In this document: one piece after another, positions 8,018 to 46,279 of the stretch | Numbering within the stretch: the first letter of the stretch is position 1 | Layout of the letters: the number at the start of each line of letters is the position of its first letter | Assembly (NCBI GenBank): GCA_964016885.1 | Contig: OZ024743.1 | Location: 327,298,001-327,362,000 of the forward strand | Direction of reading: 5' to 3' | DNA: 64,000 bases | Origin: Eledone cirrhosa | Taxonomy: Eukaryota | Position numbers and translations under genes: made by a program | Notes under the pieces: model-generated | What the model saw: the letters and a program-made list of their open reading frames with translations, nothing else | Told to the model about the DNA's origin: nothing | Databases searched by the model: none

Positions 8018-9272
8018 TTGTTTTGGCCAAAAAGTCTGTTCGGTTTTTGTTGACACTAAACTTCAAGCATTCTAATATGTAGCTAACTTCAGTTTGTTCC
8101 TTGTACATGTGGACTTGTTAGATTCTTGACAGTTCAAAGTAGTTTGACACAGACTTGCAACATGACGAGTTGTATTTTGTGTGCTTTGATCACACTGAAA
8201 ATGAAGAACCAAACTGGATATTATTGATATTTCATGCTTTATGATTTAAAAAAAAGGCAAGAAAATGACAGAAACCTTCAGGAAGATATATGCTGTGTAT
8301 GGAAAGGATGCTGTTATAGAGCGTGTGTGCCAGAAGTGGTTTCAAGATTTTGATCAAGAAATCTTTTGGCTCAAGATGAACCTTGCTTTGGTCAGTTAAC
8401 TGAGATTAACAGTGACAAAGTGAACAAGTTAGTCAAGACCTACCCCCTTTATACATCCAGGATGTTTGCAGATATTCTTCAAATATTCAAATCAAGTGTT
8501 GAAAATCATCTGCATCAACTTGGTTACGTCAGCAAGCTCGGTGTTTGGGTCCTACATCAATTGACTAAGGCTAACCTCACCCAACAGATTTCTGCAATTT
8601 GTTGCAGAAACATGAATAAAATAATCCTTTTTTGAAGAGAATAATGACAGGGGGCGAAAATGGATAATTTATTATAATGTGAAGCACAAACGATCATGGG
8701 GGAGTCCGGCGAACCACCACAAACAACCTCCAAAACAATTTTACTTGAAGAAGGTATGCTTTCAATTTGGTGGGATTATGAGCTTCTTCCTACAGATATC
8801 AATTCGGATGCATACTGTGACCAGCTGGACAAGTTAAATGCAGCAAGCTACCAGAAGCATCAAGCATTTGCTAATCATAAGAGCATTGTGTTTCATCATG
8901 ACAATGCCAGATTGCACACTTCCTTGCAGATGCAACAGAAGTTACTTTATTGGGGCTTGGCTGGGAGGTTTTGGCATACCCTCCATATTCACTTAATCTT
9001 GCACCTTCAGATTTCCATGATTCAGTCTCTTCAAAATTCATTGAATGAACACTTTCAACTCAGAAGCGGATGTAAAAATACAGCTGGAAGGGTTTTTCAG
9101 CAGTAAAGACAGGACATTCTTTGAGCAGGAAATAATGGATCTGTCCACAAGATAGCAGATGATACAGGAATGAAATGGTAATTATATCATTGATGGAATA
9201 AATCACTTTTTTGTTTAAAACTTGTGTCATATTTTCGCTTAAAAAAACCAACAGACATTTTGGTCAATCCAA
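8018..9272 (+). mobile_element. Mariner DNA transposon, full length but decayed
   Basis: Imperfect TIRs (ttgttttggccaaaaagtctgttcggttttt / aaaaaaccaacagacattttggtcaatccaa) flanked by TA. Transposase motifs VYGKDAV..RVCQKWF, EKWIIY, HHDNARLH and PYSxxLAPSDFH, with frameshifts. Confidence 0.92.
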
Positions 9273-38800: not shown

Positions 38801-39484
38801 GACATTGAGAATTGAAATTAATGTAGCTTTAGGAAGTCTGCACACTGTCATGACAGCATCTCAAGATGTGCATTGTCTGTGACTTTACCAGTAGGACATA
38901 AATAAAGAGATTGAGGTAGGGGTTCAACCCTTGAGCATCCTACATAAAATTGACCATGAGCAAAGTAGGAGTCCTGTTTCTCTGTTTCTGCTGCTCTTAG
39001 AGCTCACTTACATTTAACAGCAGAAGAGGGTGGGAGTGTAGAATATGTTTTCCATGGTAATATTGATGAAAACATCATTAAGAAAAAAAAAAAATTTTAA
39101 GTTACAAAGAAACTAAAGAAATATAACTTTAAACAGAAACACAATTGTAAGTTAAAAGAAAATGCAAATATGAACAACGATCATTTAATTTGAGTTACAG
39201 AAGATATCAATATATAAATAAACTACACAGATCGACAGCTCAGACTAATTTCAAGAATAGGAGATAGATAGAGTGGGAGATATAGAGCGAGGGAGAGAAA
39301 ATAAAGAAAATAATTGTTTCTACTTTTGGCACAAGGCCAGCAATTACCCAGTGTATTACTGGTACTTTATTTTATCGAACCCGTAAGGATAAAAGGCAAA
39401 GTTAAACTTGGTGGGAAAAAGAGAGATAGGAAAGCAGGAGACTCGGAGTAAGATGTAAAAGGATGAGCCTGAAGGTAAATGAAA

Positions 39485-40317
39485 GTGACGAAGAGTGGAC
39501 ATTGGACTGTTCAATATAATCAACTGTTCCCACAATAGTTTCTGTCCTTTTGCCTATGTAAAAATAATACAAAGTGACAATGGAAGAGTGGACATTGGAC
39601 TGTTCAATATAATCAACTGTTCCCACAATAGTTTCTGTCCTTTTGCCTATGTAAAAATAATACAAAGTGACAATGGAAGAGTGGACATTGGACTGTTCAA
39701 TATAATCAACTGTTCCCACAATAGTTTCTGTCCTTTTGCCTATGTAAAAATAATACAAAGTGACAATGGAAGAGTGGACATTGGACTGTTCAATATAATC
39801 AACTTTTCCCACAATAGTTTTTGTCCTTTTGCCTATGTAAAAATAATACAAAGTGACAATGGAAGAGTGGACATTGGACTGTTCAATATAATCAACTTTT
39901 CCCACAATAGTTTTTGTCCTTTTGCCTATGTAAAAATAATACAAAGTGACAATGGAAGAGTGGACATTGGACTGTTCAATATAATCAACTGTTCCCACAA
40001 TAGTTTCTGTCCTTTTGCCTATGTAAAAATAATACAAAGTGACAATGGAAGAGTGGACATTGGACTGTTCAATATAATCAACTGTTCCCACAATAGTTTT
40101 TGTCTTTGTGCCTATGTAAAAATAATACAAAGTGACAATGGAAGAGTGGACATTGGACTGTTCAATATAATCAACTGTTCCCACAATAGTTTTTGTCTTT
40201 GTGCCTATGTAAAAATAATACAAAGTGACAATGGAAGAGTGGACATTGGACTGTTCAATATAATCAACTGTTCCCACAATAGTTTTTGTCTTTGTGCCTA
40301 TGTAAAAATAATACAAA
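39485..40317. repeat. 93-bp tandem repeat, 9 near-identical copies
   Basis: Unit gtgacaatggaagagtggacattggactgttcaatataatcaactgttcccacaatagtttctgtccttttgcctatgtaaaaataatacaaa. Confidence 0.98.
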
Positions 40318-40437
40318 TGCAGTTTTAAGTTAAAGAAAAACAAAGCATACAGACTGACAATTAAAGAAAAACTGAAAGAATAAGAACAAAAGATTAAGTG
40401 AAAATAAAAACTGTTTTAATTAATTTGAAATGATTAT

Positions 40438-40654
40438 TTAGCATTTAAACCAGCCGTATCTGGCCAGAATTCTCTTATCTCTTTCTGTTCAAACTGGCCA
40501 TAACTGGCTGCTCATACTTATGTTAAGCTATTGTTCTCAAAATAAATAACATCAAAACCTCGTAGATTCAATATTATGTGAGATAATTATGTGAAATAAA
40601 ATGCTTACTGTGAAAAAACAATAGTAAATATAGAGTAATGTAAATGCTAAAGGG
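40438..40654. mobile_element. piggyBac-type MITE, left TIR eroded
   Basis: Ends aatgctaaaggg|ttaa. Inverted homologue of 56305-56500. Confidence 0.7.
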
Positions 40655-41274
40655 TTAAGATATTTTATCGTTTTTTTTGAAAATGTGTTAAATAATAACG
40701 GGAGGGATAAAAACGAGAGTGAAAGAAAAGAGAACGACTGTGAATTGGGGAAAAGGGTGGGTGGAAGAAAGCATGAGGTTGTAATAATATGAAAGAGAAC
40801 TTTTGCTAGCAGGGAAAAATAGATGTTAATGATGATGATGATGATGAATGGCATTGAGAGAAACTAAAATACATGAAATGGTTCCTGTGGCTGGATACTC
40901 TTCCTCACACCAACCAATTTACAGAGTGTACCAGGTGCATTTTATCATAGCACTAGCACAAGAGAAGTTGTCATATGCTCAACCAAATTGAAGACTCCCC
41001 TTTACTCTATATCAACACCATTCGATTACCACAACTTAACAGAGTGTATTTGGCCCATTTTATCATGAGACCAACACTAGAGAGGTTGTCAGGTACTTCA
41101 CTGGGCCAGAAAGTCCTCTTAACTCAATGTAGTCTTGGTCTGTTTATCCATCACTTTATGGAGGAAGAGATATTGAGAGCATTCCATTGTGACATTGGGG
41201 CTTATCTCATCTACTGCTATATATATGTATATATATATGTATATATGTATATATGTATATATGTGTATCTCTCT

Positions 41275-41329
<55 letters not shown>

Positions 41330-41332
<3 letters not shown>

Positions 41333-42265
41333 TCACCATCATTTTACATCCGCTTTTCCCTACTTGCAAGGGTGGGACGAGTCCTTTTCAGCACAGCATC
41401 TCTCCATTCGTCACAGTCCTTTGTCATCTCCTCTGTGAGCTTCAGCAACCTGAGGTCACCTCTCACCATCTCTGCCCATGTTTTTCATGGTCTTCCTCTA
41501 CTGTGTCTTCCTTCCACCGGGATTTCTTGGCACTTCTTCACGAGCGGTCATCTTTCATGCGCATCACATGTCCATACCAATGCAGTCTTCTCTCCCACAC
41601 ACTACTTATACGCAGTTTAACTCTCAACTCGTCTATGCTTGGTCATTCATGTACATTGACATTGCACATCCATCGGAGCATGCTTGCTTCATTTCTCTCC
41701 AGCTGTCGCATATCATCTGCAGTTTCTGCCCATGTCTCATTACCATGCAGCATCACGCATCTCACACAGGCATCATATAACTGACTTTTCATTCGTAGGG
41801 AGAATCCCTTCATTGTCAACAGAAGAAGCAGCTCCCTAAACTTCTTCCATCCTGTCCTTATTCTAGATACTATGGCCTCAGAGCATCCTGCTCCCTTGCT
41901 AATCTGATCACCTAGATATCGGAAGCTATCAACCACCTCTTTAGATCCTAACTGCAATTGAAAAATGTGCCTATCATTGACACATCTACATTCAAATTTC
42001 CTTGAACATCTACTGCATATGCAGTTTCCCCTTCCTGTTAGTTTGCCTGCTATCCCACTACACCCCTTGTGTACCCAAGATCTGCATTGTGTATATTCTA
42101 TAGAGTTTATGCCAACTCCTTTTCTACATATTGAACATGGCCATTTCCCTGATGGAATCAGAGTTTTGTCCTCTTTCCTACTTATCAATACTTTAGTCTT
42201 TGCTAGGTTTACTCTCAGTCCTCTTGATTCCAGTTGCTGTTTCCATAGTTGAAATTTATTCTTTA
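41330..42265 (-). mobile_element. RTE LINE 3' fragment with PHD-like finger
   Basis: GLRVNLAKTK, KWPCSICRKG...WVHKGC...CSRC, FRYLG and MLHGNETW. Confidence 0.92.
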
Positions 42266-42653
42266 GTATCGGTTGGACGTCTTTATATGTATCTATACTT
42301 GTGTAAAGATATATATATTTCTTCATTTAATTTGTAATACGGTAGAGTCAAAATTTGACCGAATTGGACTGCTTTTTTTAGTAGCACACAACCTGCCAAT
42401 GTCCACATTTCTACCCTTCTGTTGATCGCATATCACAAAATAGTTCTTCCATTTGAAATTTTCCCTGATAGTGAAGGAGGAAGAATTTTTTTGTCTTAAA
42501 TTTTCTTTCTTGACTGAGAAGTCTCCTGATGTTTGAGATTTCTCGCAATACTCTACTTGGAGTATCCTTATTTTCTCAAAGAAACTGCAGTAGAGACATT
42601 AAAATAAGTAAGTAAAGATTTTTTTCTTATCTTGTTTGCTTTTCCCAGATATG

Positions 42654-42686
<33 letters not shown>

Positions 42687-42692
<6 letters not shown>

Positions 42693-43062
42693 TAATAAAA
42701 ATAATGAATAAACAAAGAAACAGTTCCTTATATTAAAAAATTCATCATTTTACAATCGTTTCTAGGATATATATGTTAGTGTTGGTATGCATATCCTATA
42801 GATCTATGTAAAATTTTTACAAACTATCAGAAGGAATATACATACCTACACATATATATGCTGTCTTCAGAAATATTTCTGAAGACAGCATATATATGTG
42901 TAGGTATGTATATTCCTTCTGATAGTTTGTAAAAATTTTACATAGATCTATATGATATGCATACCAACACTAACATATATATCCTAGAAACGATCGTAAA
43001 ATGATGAATTTTTTAATATAAGGAACTGTTTCTTTGTTTATTCATTATTTTTATTAATTTAT
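42687..43062. repeat. 376-bp near-perfect palindrome with no spacer
   Basis: 188-bp arms, centre ttcagaaat|atttctgaa at 42874/42875; I found only two mismatches. Confidence 0.97.
42866..43008 (+). ncRNA. Hammerhead-ribozyme-like motif with ~100-nt stem II (mirror copy on the minus strand)
   Basis: CTGAAGA (42879), long hairpin, GAAAC-GATC-GTA (42987-42998). Stem III is palindromic (ACGATCGT); stem I is attt/aaat. Confidence 0.55.
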
Positions 43063-43219
43063 CTTGACTCTGTTTTCCTGTATTTTTCATCTAAAAAAAA
43101 TTTTTGAATACATCTTCTCTTTTCATGATATTCGGATTACATTGAGTTCTTCATATGGATTGGACACTACCGTACATTTTGGAAGATTTATCTATCTATA
43201 TATATATATATATGTATGT

Positions 43220-43864
43220 AAAAGGTAAACAGAAATAACAACACAATCGGTACAGTATATGGAAGAGATATATTAGGTTAACGCTTGATATAGCAGGAAG
43301 AGGGTCTTAACGTTTCAGATGCTAGTCCTTCATCAGAAGAAAGAATGAAAAATAAGATAGATTGAGGGGACGGGCGGGATGGAATTGGAAAAAATGTCTT
43401 TAGATAAAAATAACAGGTCCATTCATGTTGACATCTCTTGCAAAACTGTTGGTGCTGGCGTTTTGTGTATGATTTATTTTTTAGAAAAGTAAAAATGTGA
43501 TGTTATTGTTGTATCGTGTTTTGGTGAAGATGAGGTTGGAGAGATGCATGGAGGATTGGATGCATATAGGGGGGAGGAGAGGTTGGAGAAAGCGCTTGAG
43601 AGTAGAATGGAGCTGGCGGAGAAAAGATTTGAGATTGGGCATATTGAAGGTACTAGGGTGGGAGTGAAAAATAGACAGGTGAGAAGAAGAAAGTGGTATA
43701 AGAAGATTGTAGTAGAGGAAAAGTGGTAGAGAGTCGTGGAATATTTAAATGCAAGAAGCAAAGAAAATTTCAATGATACAAAAGATTTCCTGGTGGAAGT
43801 TCAGGTGTACTGGTTGGTATACAGTTTCGAGGTGAAAATCCAATTAGAAAATCCAATGAATTTT

Positions 43865-43865
<1 letters not shown>
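43220..43865 (-). mobile_element. Probable Penelope-like element remnant between (TA)n tracts
   Basis: Carries a minimal hammerhead and a pyrimidine-rich decayed reading frame. No RT motif seen. Confidence 0.45.
43305..43340 (-). ncRNA. Minimal PLE-type hammerhead ribozyme
   Basis: tctt-CTGATGA-aggactagcatct-GAAAC-GTT-aaga. Stem I is tctt/aaga; stem III is the palindrome AACGTT. Confidence 0.7.
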
Positions 43866-43915
<50 letters not shown>

Positions 43916-43979
43916 GTCCAACCCTTGCAAGCAGGGAAAAGCGGACGTAAAATGACGATAATGATGATGATATGCTAAT

Positions 43980-44812
43980 ATCGCTGTTGGCCACAAAAGG
44001 TTTCTCTCTAAAAATGAAAGGCAGATTTTATGATGTTTGTATACAAACAGCAATGTTACATGTCAGTGAGATCTGGGCATTTTGTGCAGAGGACCTGTGC
44101 AGATTGGAAAGAAAGGAACAAAGCATGCATGCTCCATTGGATGTGTAATAGTAATGGCAAAACATAAACGAACTAAGTTAGAAATTAGGAATAAGAGAGA
44201 TCAGATGCAGTTTACTTGAGAGGAGATTACATTGGTATGGTCATGTGATGTGCATGAAAGACGATAGCTGTATAAAAAAGTGCAGGGCGATCAAAATTGA
44301 TGGAAGCTATGGAGTAGGTAGACCCAGAAAAACCTGGGACAACATGATAAAAACTGACCCTTGCACACTTGCACCACTCTAAGACAATGTCACAGGATTG
44401 AGACCTTTGGTGGTATACAGCAATACAGAAGACCAGCCTTCCTTTATGTACGAAGTTAAACCTACAGTCATTAGGCACCTTCTAACCAAATATATACCCC
44501 ACCCCACTACTCCTACTCTATCCTTCCACTTCCACAACCCTTTTTCTGTAAAGTTATGTTGGTACCACAGAACATCCAGTCCACAGTAAAGTGGTCATGT
44601 AGGAGACACGGTAAAAAGGCTCTCAGTCCACACTGTAAATGTGGTTGCTGTTAGGAAGGGTATCTAGCTGTAGAAAACCTGCCAGATACAGTTGTATATG
44701 AGCGAGACATGGTCATCCGACCAATCTTGCCTCAAGTGGGGGAATCCTGTCTAACCCATATTAGCAGGGAAGATGGACGTTAAATGATGATGATGATGAT
44801 GATGATGATGAT
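43980..44812 (+). mobile_element. RTE LINE 3' fragment with 3' UTR and (GAT)n tail
   Basis: Closely related to 15892-16760. Confidence 0.9.
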
Positions 44813-45424
44813 ATAAGAGAAATGAAGAAAATCCTTAATACAGTAAGATACATTTGAAAAAAGAGAAGAATGACTTCACTGGTAGTTGGTATGGTTTTAT
44901 AATCCAATGTTTTAGAAGTCATTTTTGTTATTAATCCTTGTTTTTCATCTCAATCTTTTTGAACATTGGGTTATTAAAACATACCAACCATCAGTGAAGT
45001 CATTCTTCTCTTTTTTCAAATATGTATGCAGTAATTTAGCAGACCCACCTTCTATGTGCACAACAAAAAGTATGCTGTCCCCACTGTAAAGTAGTTGAGT
45101 TGTTGTCTCAACAAAAAGCACCCAGTCCACACTGTAAAGTGATTGTGTAGGTGTTACAACAAAAAGCGCCTAGCCCATACTGTAAAGTGGTCATATCGAT
45201 TTCATGACAAAAGTGCCCAGTCCACTCTGTAAAGTGGACTGGGCACTTGTTGTCACCATCCCATGAAATAAAATATAGATACAAAAATAGTATATGGTGT
45301 GAGTTTTGTTGGACTCCTCTCTAGATATAGACAGGTACATATACAATATATTGTGTATTCTTTATGATATATGGTCCTTTCTCTCTCTCTATATATATAC
45401 ATATATGTTTTACATTTGAATTCA

Positions 45425-45815
45425 TCATCATCATCATCATCATCAATTTACGTCCACTTTTCCCTGCTTGCAAGGGTGGGACAGGAACTGATTCTGGCTT
45501 GCTTTCTACAACTGGATGCCCTTCCTAACACAAACCTCATTTACAGTGAGTGTTCGGTGCTTTTTTTCTGTGGCGCCTACACATCCACTTTACAGTGTGG
45601 GCTGGGTGCTTTTTTTGCCGTGGCACCTTCACGACCACTTTGCAGTGGAATGATAGGGAACCCAGTCCTATCATCTCATTTCTACAGCTGAGTAAACTGG
45701 AGCAATGTAAAGTGTCTTGCTCAAGGAAACAAAACAACACATCATCCGGTCTGAGAATTGAACTCACAACCTTTTGATTGCAAGGCCAATGCTCTAACCA
45801 CTAAGCCATGTGCCT
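45425..45815 (-). mobile_element. Full-length SINE family C: tRNA head + CORE-like domain + RTE 3' tail
   Basis: A box tggcttagtgg, B box gagttcaattc, ccttgagcaagacactt...cagtttactcagctg, then RTE 3' UTR subrepeats and (GAT)n. Confidence 0.8.
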
Positions 45816-46279
45816 CCATTATATGTAGAAACAATTATATATATAAACTTAGGAAAATCAACAAAGAGATGACAAGACAATGAATGAAAATAAGGTAAAA
45901 CAAAAAACAATTTTTTTAAGGAGAAAGTTAAAAAATTATTTTTTGAAAATAAAGATACAGAACTCCAAGGTCATAAGCCGTTGAGATAGACTTTGACAGT
46001 TTAGACCCCTACCAATGTTGGGGTCACAGCATCTGACACAAGTCAAAGACTGTCCTATGGAGTAAGGGATGAGGTAAAACAGCAACCGATAGCAATTAAG
46101 CTATGACAAGTACACATGGAATTTCTTGTGACGAAACTTTCGTGAGTGAAAAGAAGGGAAAAAGGAAAGGACAAAAAGCAATACAAAGAAAGCAAGATAT
46201 CCTGTTAAAAAATGTGACCCAATGAAATTAATGGTGGGGGCAGAAAGAACATGCTCATCACAGGTTAGTAATAATAAAC

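Follow-up and report, generated by a model that had tools for sequence, protein, structure and literature searches.

Introduction

Textbook features of endonuclease-bearing (EN+) Penelope-like elements, or PLEs, include an inverted, 5'-truncated copy and a tail on one side only (PMC8557442). Members of the Hydra clade are marked by an RWK-type motif, DKT, CxCx5C, and CxxC/CxH motifs around E and N, are without CCHH, and target (TA)n (PMC8557442). The pLTRs of PLEs contain promoters (PMC2377424; PMC3846280), namely a TATA and Inr pair in rotifers (PMC3846280) and an internal promoter with an Inr in Drosophila Penelope (PMC2377424). They also carry hammerhead ribozymes, which cut weakly, as dimers or with protein (PMC4209133; PMC11167929), and opposite-strand pairs of which have been noted 100-700 bp apart (PMC4209133). 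For the head-to-head repeats of PLEs, an antisense template was proposed in 2013 (PMC3846280). In vitro, the Poseidon element of Anolis uses two internal RT starts, extends both strands, and accepts unprocessed RNA (PMC11167929).

The window analyzed here is a stretch of 64,000 nucleotides from Eledone cirrhosa (assembly GCA_964016885.1, contig OZ024743.1, positions 327,298,001 to 327,362,000 of the forward strand), and coordinates refer to this window. At 42687-43062 it contains a palindrome that is a very short PLE insertion and no new element family. PLEs, inverted pLTRs, the tail, and the pLTR hammerhead are already known. What is new, as far as we have found, is a ~100-nt helix II whose length stays constant among divergent subfamilies, together with genomic evidence that a capped sense template and a one-arm-per-site rule underlie head-to-head junctions.

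A spacerless palindrome in a (TA)n tract

The two 188-nt arms, 42687-42874 and 42875-43062, abut with zero spacer and are 99% complementary, with two mismatches at 42796/42953 and 42754/42995. A first-pass annotation, made from the sequence alone, had described just such a spacerless 376-bp palindrome. It had also read CTGAAGA and GAAAC-GATC-GTA on both strands; the cores are indeed present in both arms (42879 on the plus strand, 42870 on the minus strand), each with a 101-nt insert, but the stem III loop of the left arm is GATT rather than GATC, so the shared motif is GAAAC-GATY-GTA. Among the other inverted repeats of at least 40 nt in the window with arms within 600 nt, none has equal identity.

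The insertion exceeds the palindrome. The left arm (42687-42874, minus strand) is a pLTR copy that runs from its outer end at 42687, which is the family's site 1 and the counterpart of 43062, back to 3 nt short of the putative capped RNA 5' end. The right arm goes on through the element tail; this pLTR copy (42874-43194, plus strand) would run from site 2, at ~43194, back to 2 nt short of the same 5' end, and it overlaps the left arm by a TA microhomology. The tail itself (43063-43194, plus strand), of ~130 nt, lies between the two putative RT start sites and is found on one arm only. Both ends of the insertion are within the (TA)n target microsatellite (42658-42686 on the left, 43195-43216 on the right, as read from the sequence), and other copies of the family likewise end in (TA)n. 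The segment 42874-43213 matches loci L031, L032, and L033. The identical zero-spacer junction recurs at two more loci (L182 and L190) and in the raw reads of another sample (15 reads, with 2 starts). A candidate host exon at 42420-42590 was unconvincing.

The arms as pLTRs of a young Penelope-like element

A genome search with the arm gave 1360 candidates, and scoring of 40 of these yielded at least 43 matches at 98-100%. By this measure, the arm family is young and abundant in the genome, and the arm is multi-copy, as the earlier reading of a mobilized element had anticipated. Many arm copies are outward-facing pairs, with spacers of 0, 7, 15, 114, ~400, 530, 1300, and 4300-4500 nt, which agrees with the suggestion in the first-pass annotation that they are inverted pLTRs. 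Between the arms of the two longest inverted pairs lie reading frames for RT and, C-terminally, GIY-YIG; those of L031 and L032 are interrupted by stops and frameshifts. Judging from these frames, each arm is the pLTR of a coding RT+GIY-YIG element, in keeping with the Penelope origin proposed at first. The family has both the inverted 5'-truncated copy and the tail on one end only that characterize EN+ PLEs. Given the RT/EN frames and the asymmetric ends, a reading as the TIRs of a DNA transposon was dropped.

The element protein contains RWR, SDKT, CNCRNKANC (the CxCx5C linker), CRLC (CxxC), and CNH (CxH), and CCHH is absent from it. It is 49-51% identical to two ~800-aa proteins, its sole relatives in a protein search; a Pfam search with three ORF pieces returned no RT or GIY-YIG match and nothing else relevant. 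The motifs of the protein and the (TA)n targeting point to a placement in the Hydra clade. The family shares with Hydra-clade PLEs (Craig et al. 2021, PMC8557442) the C-terminal GIY-YIG without CCHH, RW[RK], DKT, CxCx5C, and CxxC/CxH, as well as the (TA)n targets, the inverted 5'-truncated copy, and a pLTR hammerhead whose helix II has an extra N·N at its base. It differs from them in its tail, which is ~130 nt rather than 30-40, and in its length of ~4.3 kb with an Asn/Thr-rich ORF linker, compared with less than 3 kb in Hydra (PMC8557442).

The hammerhead lies ~500-600 nt upstream of the ORF, at the putative RNA 5' end. A second young family (883 candidates, 40 of them scored) has the same hammerhead core as the window family, and an older clade also bears this core. 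The old clade and the young family have a common end structure and common tail motifs; the link of the old clade to RT is made solely by three flanking fragments.

In the L032 ORF, the gap between RT and EN is occupied by a ~130-aa Asn/Thr-rich low-complexity linker, which recalls the N-rich inserts reported in rotifer Penelope ORFs. On the reverse strand of the same locus, between the tail and the ORF start, there is a possible 5' UTR intron with a GTAAGT donor and (TA)n, seen in this one copy only, and the sense piece of this copy starts exactly at site 1. In L031 (4760-5224), a partial duplication of ~232 nt in the 3' UTR contains a further copy of the start-site region and of the first core half, to which no second half corresponds. 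A subfamily consisting of L032, L012, L013, L029, and L030 carries a SINE of ~200 nt exactly at the putative start site, where 13 nt are duplicated; the window has similar SINE copies at scattered positions.

A predicted type I hammerhead with a helix II of ~100 nt

We predict a type I hammerhead in each arm, whose core, palindromic stem III, and long rod recur across subfamilies. In the right arm (plus strand), the 5' strand of stem I (42874-42878) is followed by the catalytic core's first half, CUGAAGA (42879-42885), and by the helix II domain (42886-42986), a 101-nt rod in which the basal pair position is C·A and pair 4 is a C·C mismatch that is conserved. The second half of the core, GAAAC, the palindromic stem III ACGAUCGU, and the cleavage triplet GUA occupy 42987-42998, and the cut is predicted after 42998. 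The stretch 42999-43052 comprises the 3' strand of stem I (42999-43005) and a downstream hairpin that would be able to capture it. Stem I has 5 bp in the window copy, where its 5' strand is 5 nt, and 7 bp (7 nt) in an RNA that begins at the putative start site. The left-arm motif is at 42751-42870 (minus strand), and its GATT loop leaves two G·U pairs in the dimer helix. The computed fold of the insert is a single rod, C·A and C·C at its base included, much as had been read from the letters.

Membership in type I follows from the core CUGANGA ... GAAA, A15.1-U16.1, and an NUH site, which is GUA or GUU across subfamilies. The G10.1-C11.1 closing pair is absent from the family: the first pair is C·A, A-U, G-U, or U-A. 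Published PLE motifs include N·N variants of the helix II base, with C·A for an element of Chara (File S2 of PMC8557442), and an active U-U variant of the closing pair has been reported (PMC3088659). An Rfam search of 40000-46000 with E up to 10 gave no hammerhead match; it missed the short neighboring motif too, and so is a weak test. Sub-threshold Rfam matches to AT-rich microRNA hairpins were set aside as matches of shape only.

Genome-wide, the core patterns matched 458 and 76 places, compared with 0 for reversed controls; that is, with 458 matches against none, the motif is beyond chance. The core, stem III, and three pairs of stem I were prescribed by the search patterns, so the invariance of these parts is not independent. 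In 12 old copies found by DNA similarity (of which 2 are also pattern matches and 1 is misaligned), the full core is the majority state. Per copy, the core of these 12 is conserved at 0.88 and the interior at 0.86, similar values being as expected under neutral decay after insertion. Among 117 distinct motifs in the fetched loci, insert length peaks at 101 (n=31) and 102 nt (n=14). Insert length keeps this peak while the identity of the interior drops to 39-50% between the old clade and the window family.

For covariation analysis, 75 motifs with inserts of 97-116 nt were reduced to 36 representatives at less than 93% identity. The proposed stems have 80.4% of cells paired, compared with 70.7% after shuffling (0 of 500 shuffles), and 81 cells are changed on both sides, compared with 36.5 (0 of 500). 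Slid controls all drop to 35-50% paired. Counted as pairs with double changes, the alignment is not above shuffles (12 versus 10.3; 72 of 500). Compensatory changes are present in seven of the eight basal pairs of helix II. At the eighth, the C·C position, 33 of 35 representatives are unpaired; the mismatch is thus a family trait and not decay. The first-pass annotation had regarded the C·A and C·C mismatches as signs that this copy may be inactive, an interpretation contradicted by this conservation and by the Chara precedent for C·A. Its reading of the motif as a hammerhead of type I, in which stem III is palindromic and helix II of unusual length, fared better: stems I and II appear to be backed by covariation, with a signal that lies largely between two related clades. 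Under default settings, RNAalifold found no structure in the old clade; under relaxed settings it found the rod there, with 522 of 646 cells paired. The rod has z < -2 in 14 of 15 young copies and in 7 of 21 old ones, and we read the distal rod, as modeled, to be strong in young copies and weak in decayed old ones.

Like the minimal hammerheads of PLEs (Cervera and de la Pena 2014, PMC4209133), the motif is of type I, resides in the pLTR, and has a palindromic stem III predicted to be dimeric. It differs in helix II. What that study calls a 'large' helix II has 7-8 bp and a conserved G10.1-C11.1 (PMC4209133), whereas the window family has a rod of ~30-35 bp in which the first pair varies and pair 4 is a C·C or C·U mismatch that is conserved. 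In Hydra, helix II consists of 3-7 bp and a loop of 3-10 nt (~10-25 nt), as against 101-116 nt for the helix II domain in this family; the longest domain in File S2 of the same source is ~54 nt, in a spike-moss element (PMC8557442). Other motifs in the genome have short stems, so the long stem is lineage-specific. A published scan for PLE hammerheads allowed 7-17 nt between the core halves, and with such limits motifs of 101-116 nt would be missed; elements scored as hammerhead-free may therefore bear long-stem ones. The family is also a natural test of the tolerance of helix II, and of a conserved internal mismatch replacing loop II. In the literature searched, a PLE hammerhead with such a stem was not found, though an earlier description is possible. 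A pattern scan of metagenomes gave 17 matches, none of which goes with a matching PLE protein or has stem I extended as in the family, and these were treated as chance.

Locus L275 (G000:C1:73144500-73150000) has an inverted hammerhead pair with a helix II of ~27-32 nt near a Hydra-type RT-EN fragment; it is possibly an intermediate in stem growth.

Predicted folding of the ribozyme and the palindrome

The minimum-energy fold pairs the two core halves together. The hammerhead fold costs ~3 kcal/mol in the short RNA, and ~10 kcal/mol once the downstream hairpin captures the 3' strand of stem I. This hairpin is 84% paired over 32 of the 36 representatives (four with deletions were omitted); its covariation is not above shuffles (158 of 500), and default RNAalifold gave no structure for the downstream region. 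We regard the alternative hairpin, a product of modeling, as suggestive.

For the window palindrome, a 184-bp hairpin has a computed energy of -279.6 kcal/mol, compared with -129.1 for the forced ribozyme fold, and transcription from either side makes the antisense arm first. Because the antisense arm comes first and the hairpin is far more stable, read-through would give dsRNA and no ribozyme; the first-pass annotation had expected both. The ribozyme at this locus is thus predicted to be silenced by the long hairpin. The window copy is probably an inert by-product, and a source of dsRNA at most. A role of the palindrome transcript as an ADAR or siRNA substrate is plausible. Among the RNA runs, none contained more than 0.04 of the words of the stretch.

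A junction hotspot at the putative RNA 5' end

Back-to-back arms with a spacer of 0-30 nt are found at 209 loci, and with a spacer of 31-130 nt at 29; an equal 0-30 control window inside helix II gives 9 loci. Of the 72 arm ends in a set of 36 of these loci, to which the window belongs, 34 are exactly at the A of ATTATTT, which is the first base of stem I, and no arm end is more than 3 nt beyond it. Raw reads of two other samples contain 282 and 351 loose ends at this same A. Fold-back joints at this putative start-site base, one of them of the window's type, are also found in the raw reads of other samples. Runs labeled as other organisms contained no more than short pieces and were left out of the evidence.

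Genome-wide, G is the base in 179 of the 658 arms with a non-templated base at -1, many of them right after pure (TA)n; 16 of the first 100 of these arms are, by eye, SINE-bearing or indel variants that dilute the share of G. In 32 fetched junction arms, G amounts to 41% at -1, compared with 3-15% at -2 to -8. Set against window-wide G (23% of non-C bases), this is a modest excess (p 0.007). Of the 15 G's among the arms of the 36 loci, 4 may instead represent the templated C of the partner arm. An extra G is a mark of the cap in full-length L1 insertions (PMC11702581). We infer that the -1 G was copied from an m7G cap, which would place the start of the RNA at stem I.

Shorter head-to-head insertions, with both arms stopping downstream of or within the ribozyme, are present at 267 loci genome-wide. 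A second hotspot near the contig joints at 43009-43012 was rejected, as the short arms there are broadly spread; read ends at 43010 in the RAD runs are probably a restriction site.

Proposed mechanism of head-to-head insertion and its alternatives

The outer ends of the arms follow a rule. At 35 loci examined for site 1 (43062) and site 2 (~43194), one arm ends at each site in 27 and both arms end at the same site in 0, while in 8 a single arm end could be assigned. The arms of a locus diverge by a median of 1.1%, compared with 7.4% between loci (32 of 36 loci usable). We consider it probable that the palindrome is a short head-to-head PLE insertion produced via two-strand priming on capped sense RNA, its arms carrying predicted type I hammerheads with the conserved ~100-nt helix II rod. 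In this mechanism, both nicked strands of the (TA)n target would prime RT, one at each of the two fixed internal sites, on a capped, uncleaved sense RNA. Both cDNAs would run through the uncut ribozyme to the cap, and the two run-off ends would then be joined by microhomology, which at the window locus would be the shared TA. Cutting by the ribozyme would be weak and dimer- or protein-dependent, so that uncut RNA would be the usual template. This scheme has much in common with the Anolis Poseidon element PAc (Frangieh et al. 2024, PMC11167929), in which two RT starts define the tail, both strands are extended, and the template is uncut. The PAc study gives no start-site difference between the strands; the parts of it drawn on here mention neither a rule of one site per strand nor run-off ends marked by a cap, and offer no account of how head-to-head junctions arise; also, the PAc hammerhead overlaps the start codon, while that of the window family is at the putative RNA 5' end (PMC11167929). 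Rotifer Penelope (Arkhipova et al. 2013, PMC3846280) likewise has head-to-head pLTRs, a junction palindrome, a one-sided tail, and TATA and Inr in the pLTR. Its proposed origin is self-priming on an antisense template, whereas the G and the end hotspot of the window family favor a sense capped template.

We infer that both cDNAs are primed, rather than one being snapped back, and snap-back is the main rival. In it, the cDNA primed at site 2 reaches the cap, folds back, and is extended, and the resulting hairpin is resolved at site 1 by the endonuclease. Insertion and ribozyme stay as they are under this rival, which departs only in how the second arm originates. The near-identical arms of each locus, and the contrast of divergence within and between loci, fit this equally well. 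Moreover, snap-back is documented for R2 after full-length cDNA (PMC11371274), the palindromic inverted junctions of rotifer PLEs have been read as self-priming (PMC3846280), the tail has been ascribed to EN resolution (PMC8557442), and some of our junctions resemble a C-G pair closing a 4-nt loop. We nevertheless find snap-back unlikely, as each of the 27 resolved loci has site 1 as the end of its inverted arm, with 43062 as the exact position in 25, and in vitro measurements have given two internal RT starts (PMC11167929). Spacers of 0 or 1 nt, and likewise a G carried by both arms (L155, L178), are hard to reconcile with a priming loop. At 42953, 122 arms include 33 with G and 85 with T, and the window arms carry one of each; this difference by two common alleles is a weak hint of two templates. 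The first-pass annotation had favored a separate non-coding fold-back or retrozyme-like element. An independent non-autonomous element of this kind, MITE-like or retrozyme, spreading as a palindrome would account for the palindromic form at 209 or more loci, and is very improbable: the arms are part of a coding PLE, the tail is on one arm only, and spacers vary between loci, which implies separate junction events. Foldback elements and MITEs have symmetric TIRs and a fixed structure, while here the ends are asymmetric and the junctions locus-specific. Non-LTR retrozymes, whose type I hammerhead is also of PLE descent, are direct tandem non-coding monomers (bioRxiv 2026.07.22.740005); the copies here are inverted or single, without tandem monomers, and appear as the dispersed by-product of an autonomous coding element. 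That the palindrome is a fold-back artefact of assembly or library we hold to be scarcely credible. Library preparation can produce perfect palindromes, and of the listed reads and contigs checked none bridges the window locus, but the arms differ at two sites and by the tail, and this class of junction is found at 209 loci and in the raw reads of other samples.

Two parts of the two-strand reading have alternatives of their own. The discrete 5' end might be a 3'-processing cut after AATAAA that is then recapped, or a strong RT stop at the base of stem I with a non-templated G added afterwards, rather than a transcription start. Family A, family B, and the old clade all have a conserved AATAAA 10-16 nt upstream, and family A is without a TATA at -30. 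Against this, the peak is one base wide on an initiator-type C|A step (TCA+1TT), the enrichment of G is confined to -1, TATATAT is present 30 nt upstream of the putative start site in old subfamilies, and rotifer pLTRs and Drosophila Penelope have TATA + Inr and Inr promoters, respectively (PMC3846280; PMC2377424). We thus judge a processing cut or RT stop to be rather improbable. As for the ribozyme, it is possible, though we would not favor it, that the motif descends from a hammerhead that has lost cutting, its core and rod being retained at the RNA 5' end as a structure for protein binding or regulation; this is compatible with the proposed insertion mechanism. The 5' ends show no pile-up at the predicted cut (30 loci there consist of 9 indel variants and 21 truncations spread over -6 to +7), competing folds exceed the hammerhead in stability, C·A is non-canonical as a base pair position, and the Anolis element inserts in vitro without cleavage, with no RNA-seq read ending at the cut in the data described (PMC11167929). 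On the other side, every core position, the NUH triplet, and the palindrome of stem III remain the majority state where subfamily interiors are less than 50% alike, copies found without the core pattern included. Furthermore, PLE hammerheads do cut, if weakly, as dimers or with protein (PMC4209133; PMC11167929), and Hydra motifs commonly have N·N at the helix II base (File S2 of PMC8557442).

Returning to two-strand priming, a more speculative reading, which we hold to be possible but less likely than not, is that an active hammerhead with a ~100-nt helix II at the start of the capped mRNA would act as a switch: cutting would decap the RNA, the downstream hairpin or the bound protein would block cutting and license the RNA as a template, and the protein would prime one strand per fixed site. 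If true, this switch and two-site priming would explain the head-to-head repeats and the one-sided tail of Penelope elements generally, without an antisense template. Hundreds of young insertions record a single 5' end, a cap-like G, and the one-arm-per-site rule (27 to 0), which makes the origin of Penelope head-to-head repeats with a one-sided tail directly testable in the existing in vitro system.

Neighboring features in the window

Sharing the (TA)n tract of the palindrome is the 3' end of a different Penelope-type element (43217-43860, minus strand). It has an ordinary minimal hammerhead at 43336-43309, with a helix II domain of 13 nt and a stem I of 4 bp, and it recurs beside L140 and in L001. 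Another Hydra-type element fragment is present at 61925-60019 (minus strand), whose RT and EN are 48% and 41% identical, respectively, to those of the palindrome's family; ~350 nt downstream of it there is a decayed, short-stem hammerhead-like sequence. The palindrome is flanked by two fragments with SINE-like tails in inverted orientation, 41500-42270 (minus strand) and 43960-44440 (plus strand), which resemble the 3' ends of RTE-type LINEs. A fragment at ~8800-9070 (plus strand) resembles a mariner-type transposase. Finally, a tandem array at 39397-40440 has a 93-nt unit with an open frame, and its middle copies are 98-100% identical.
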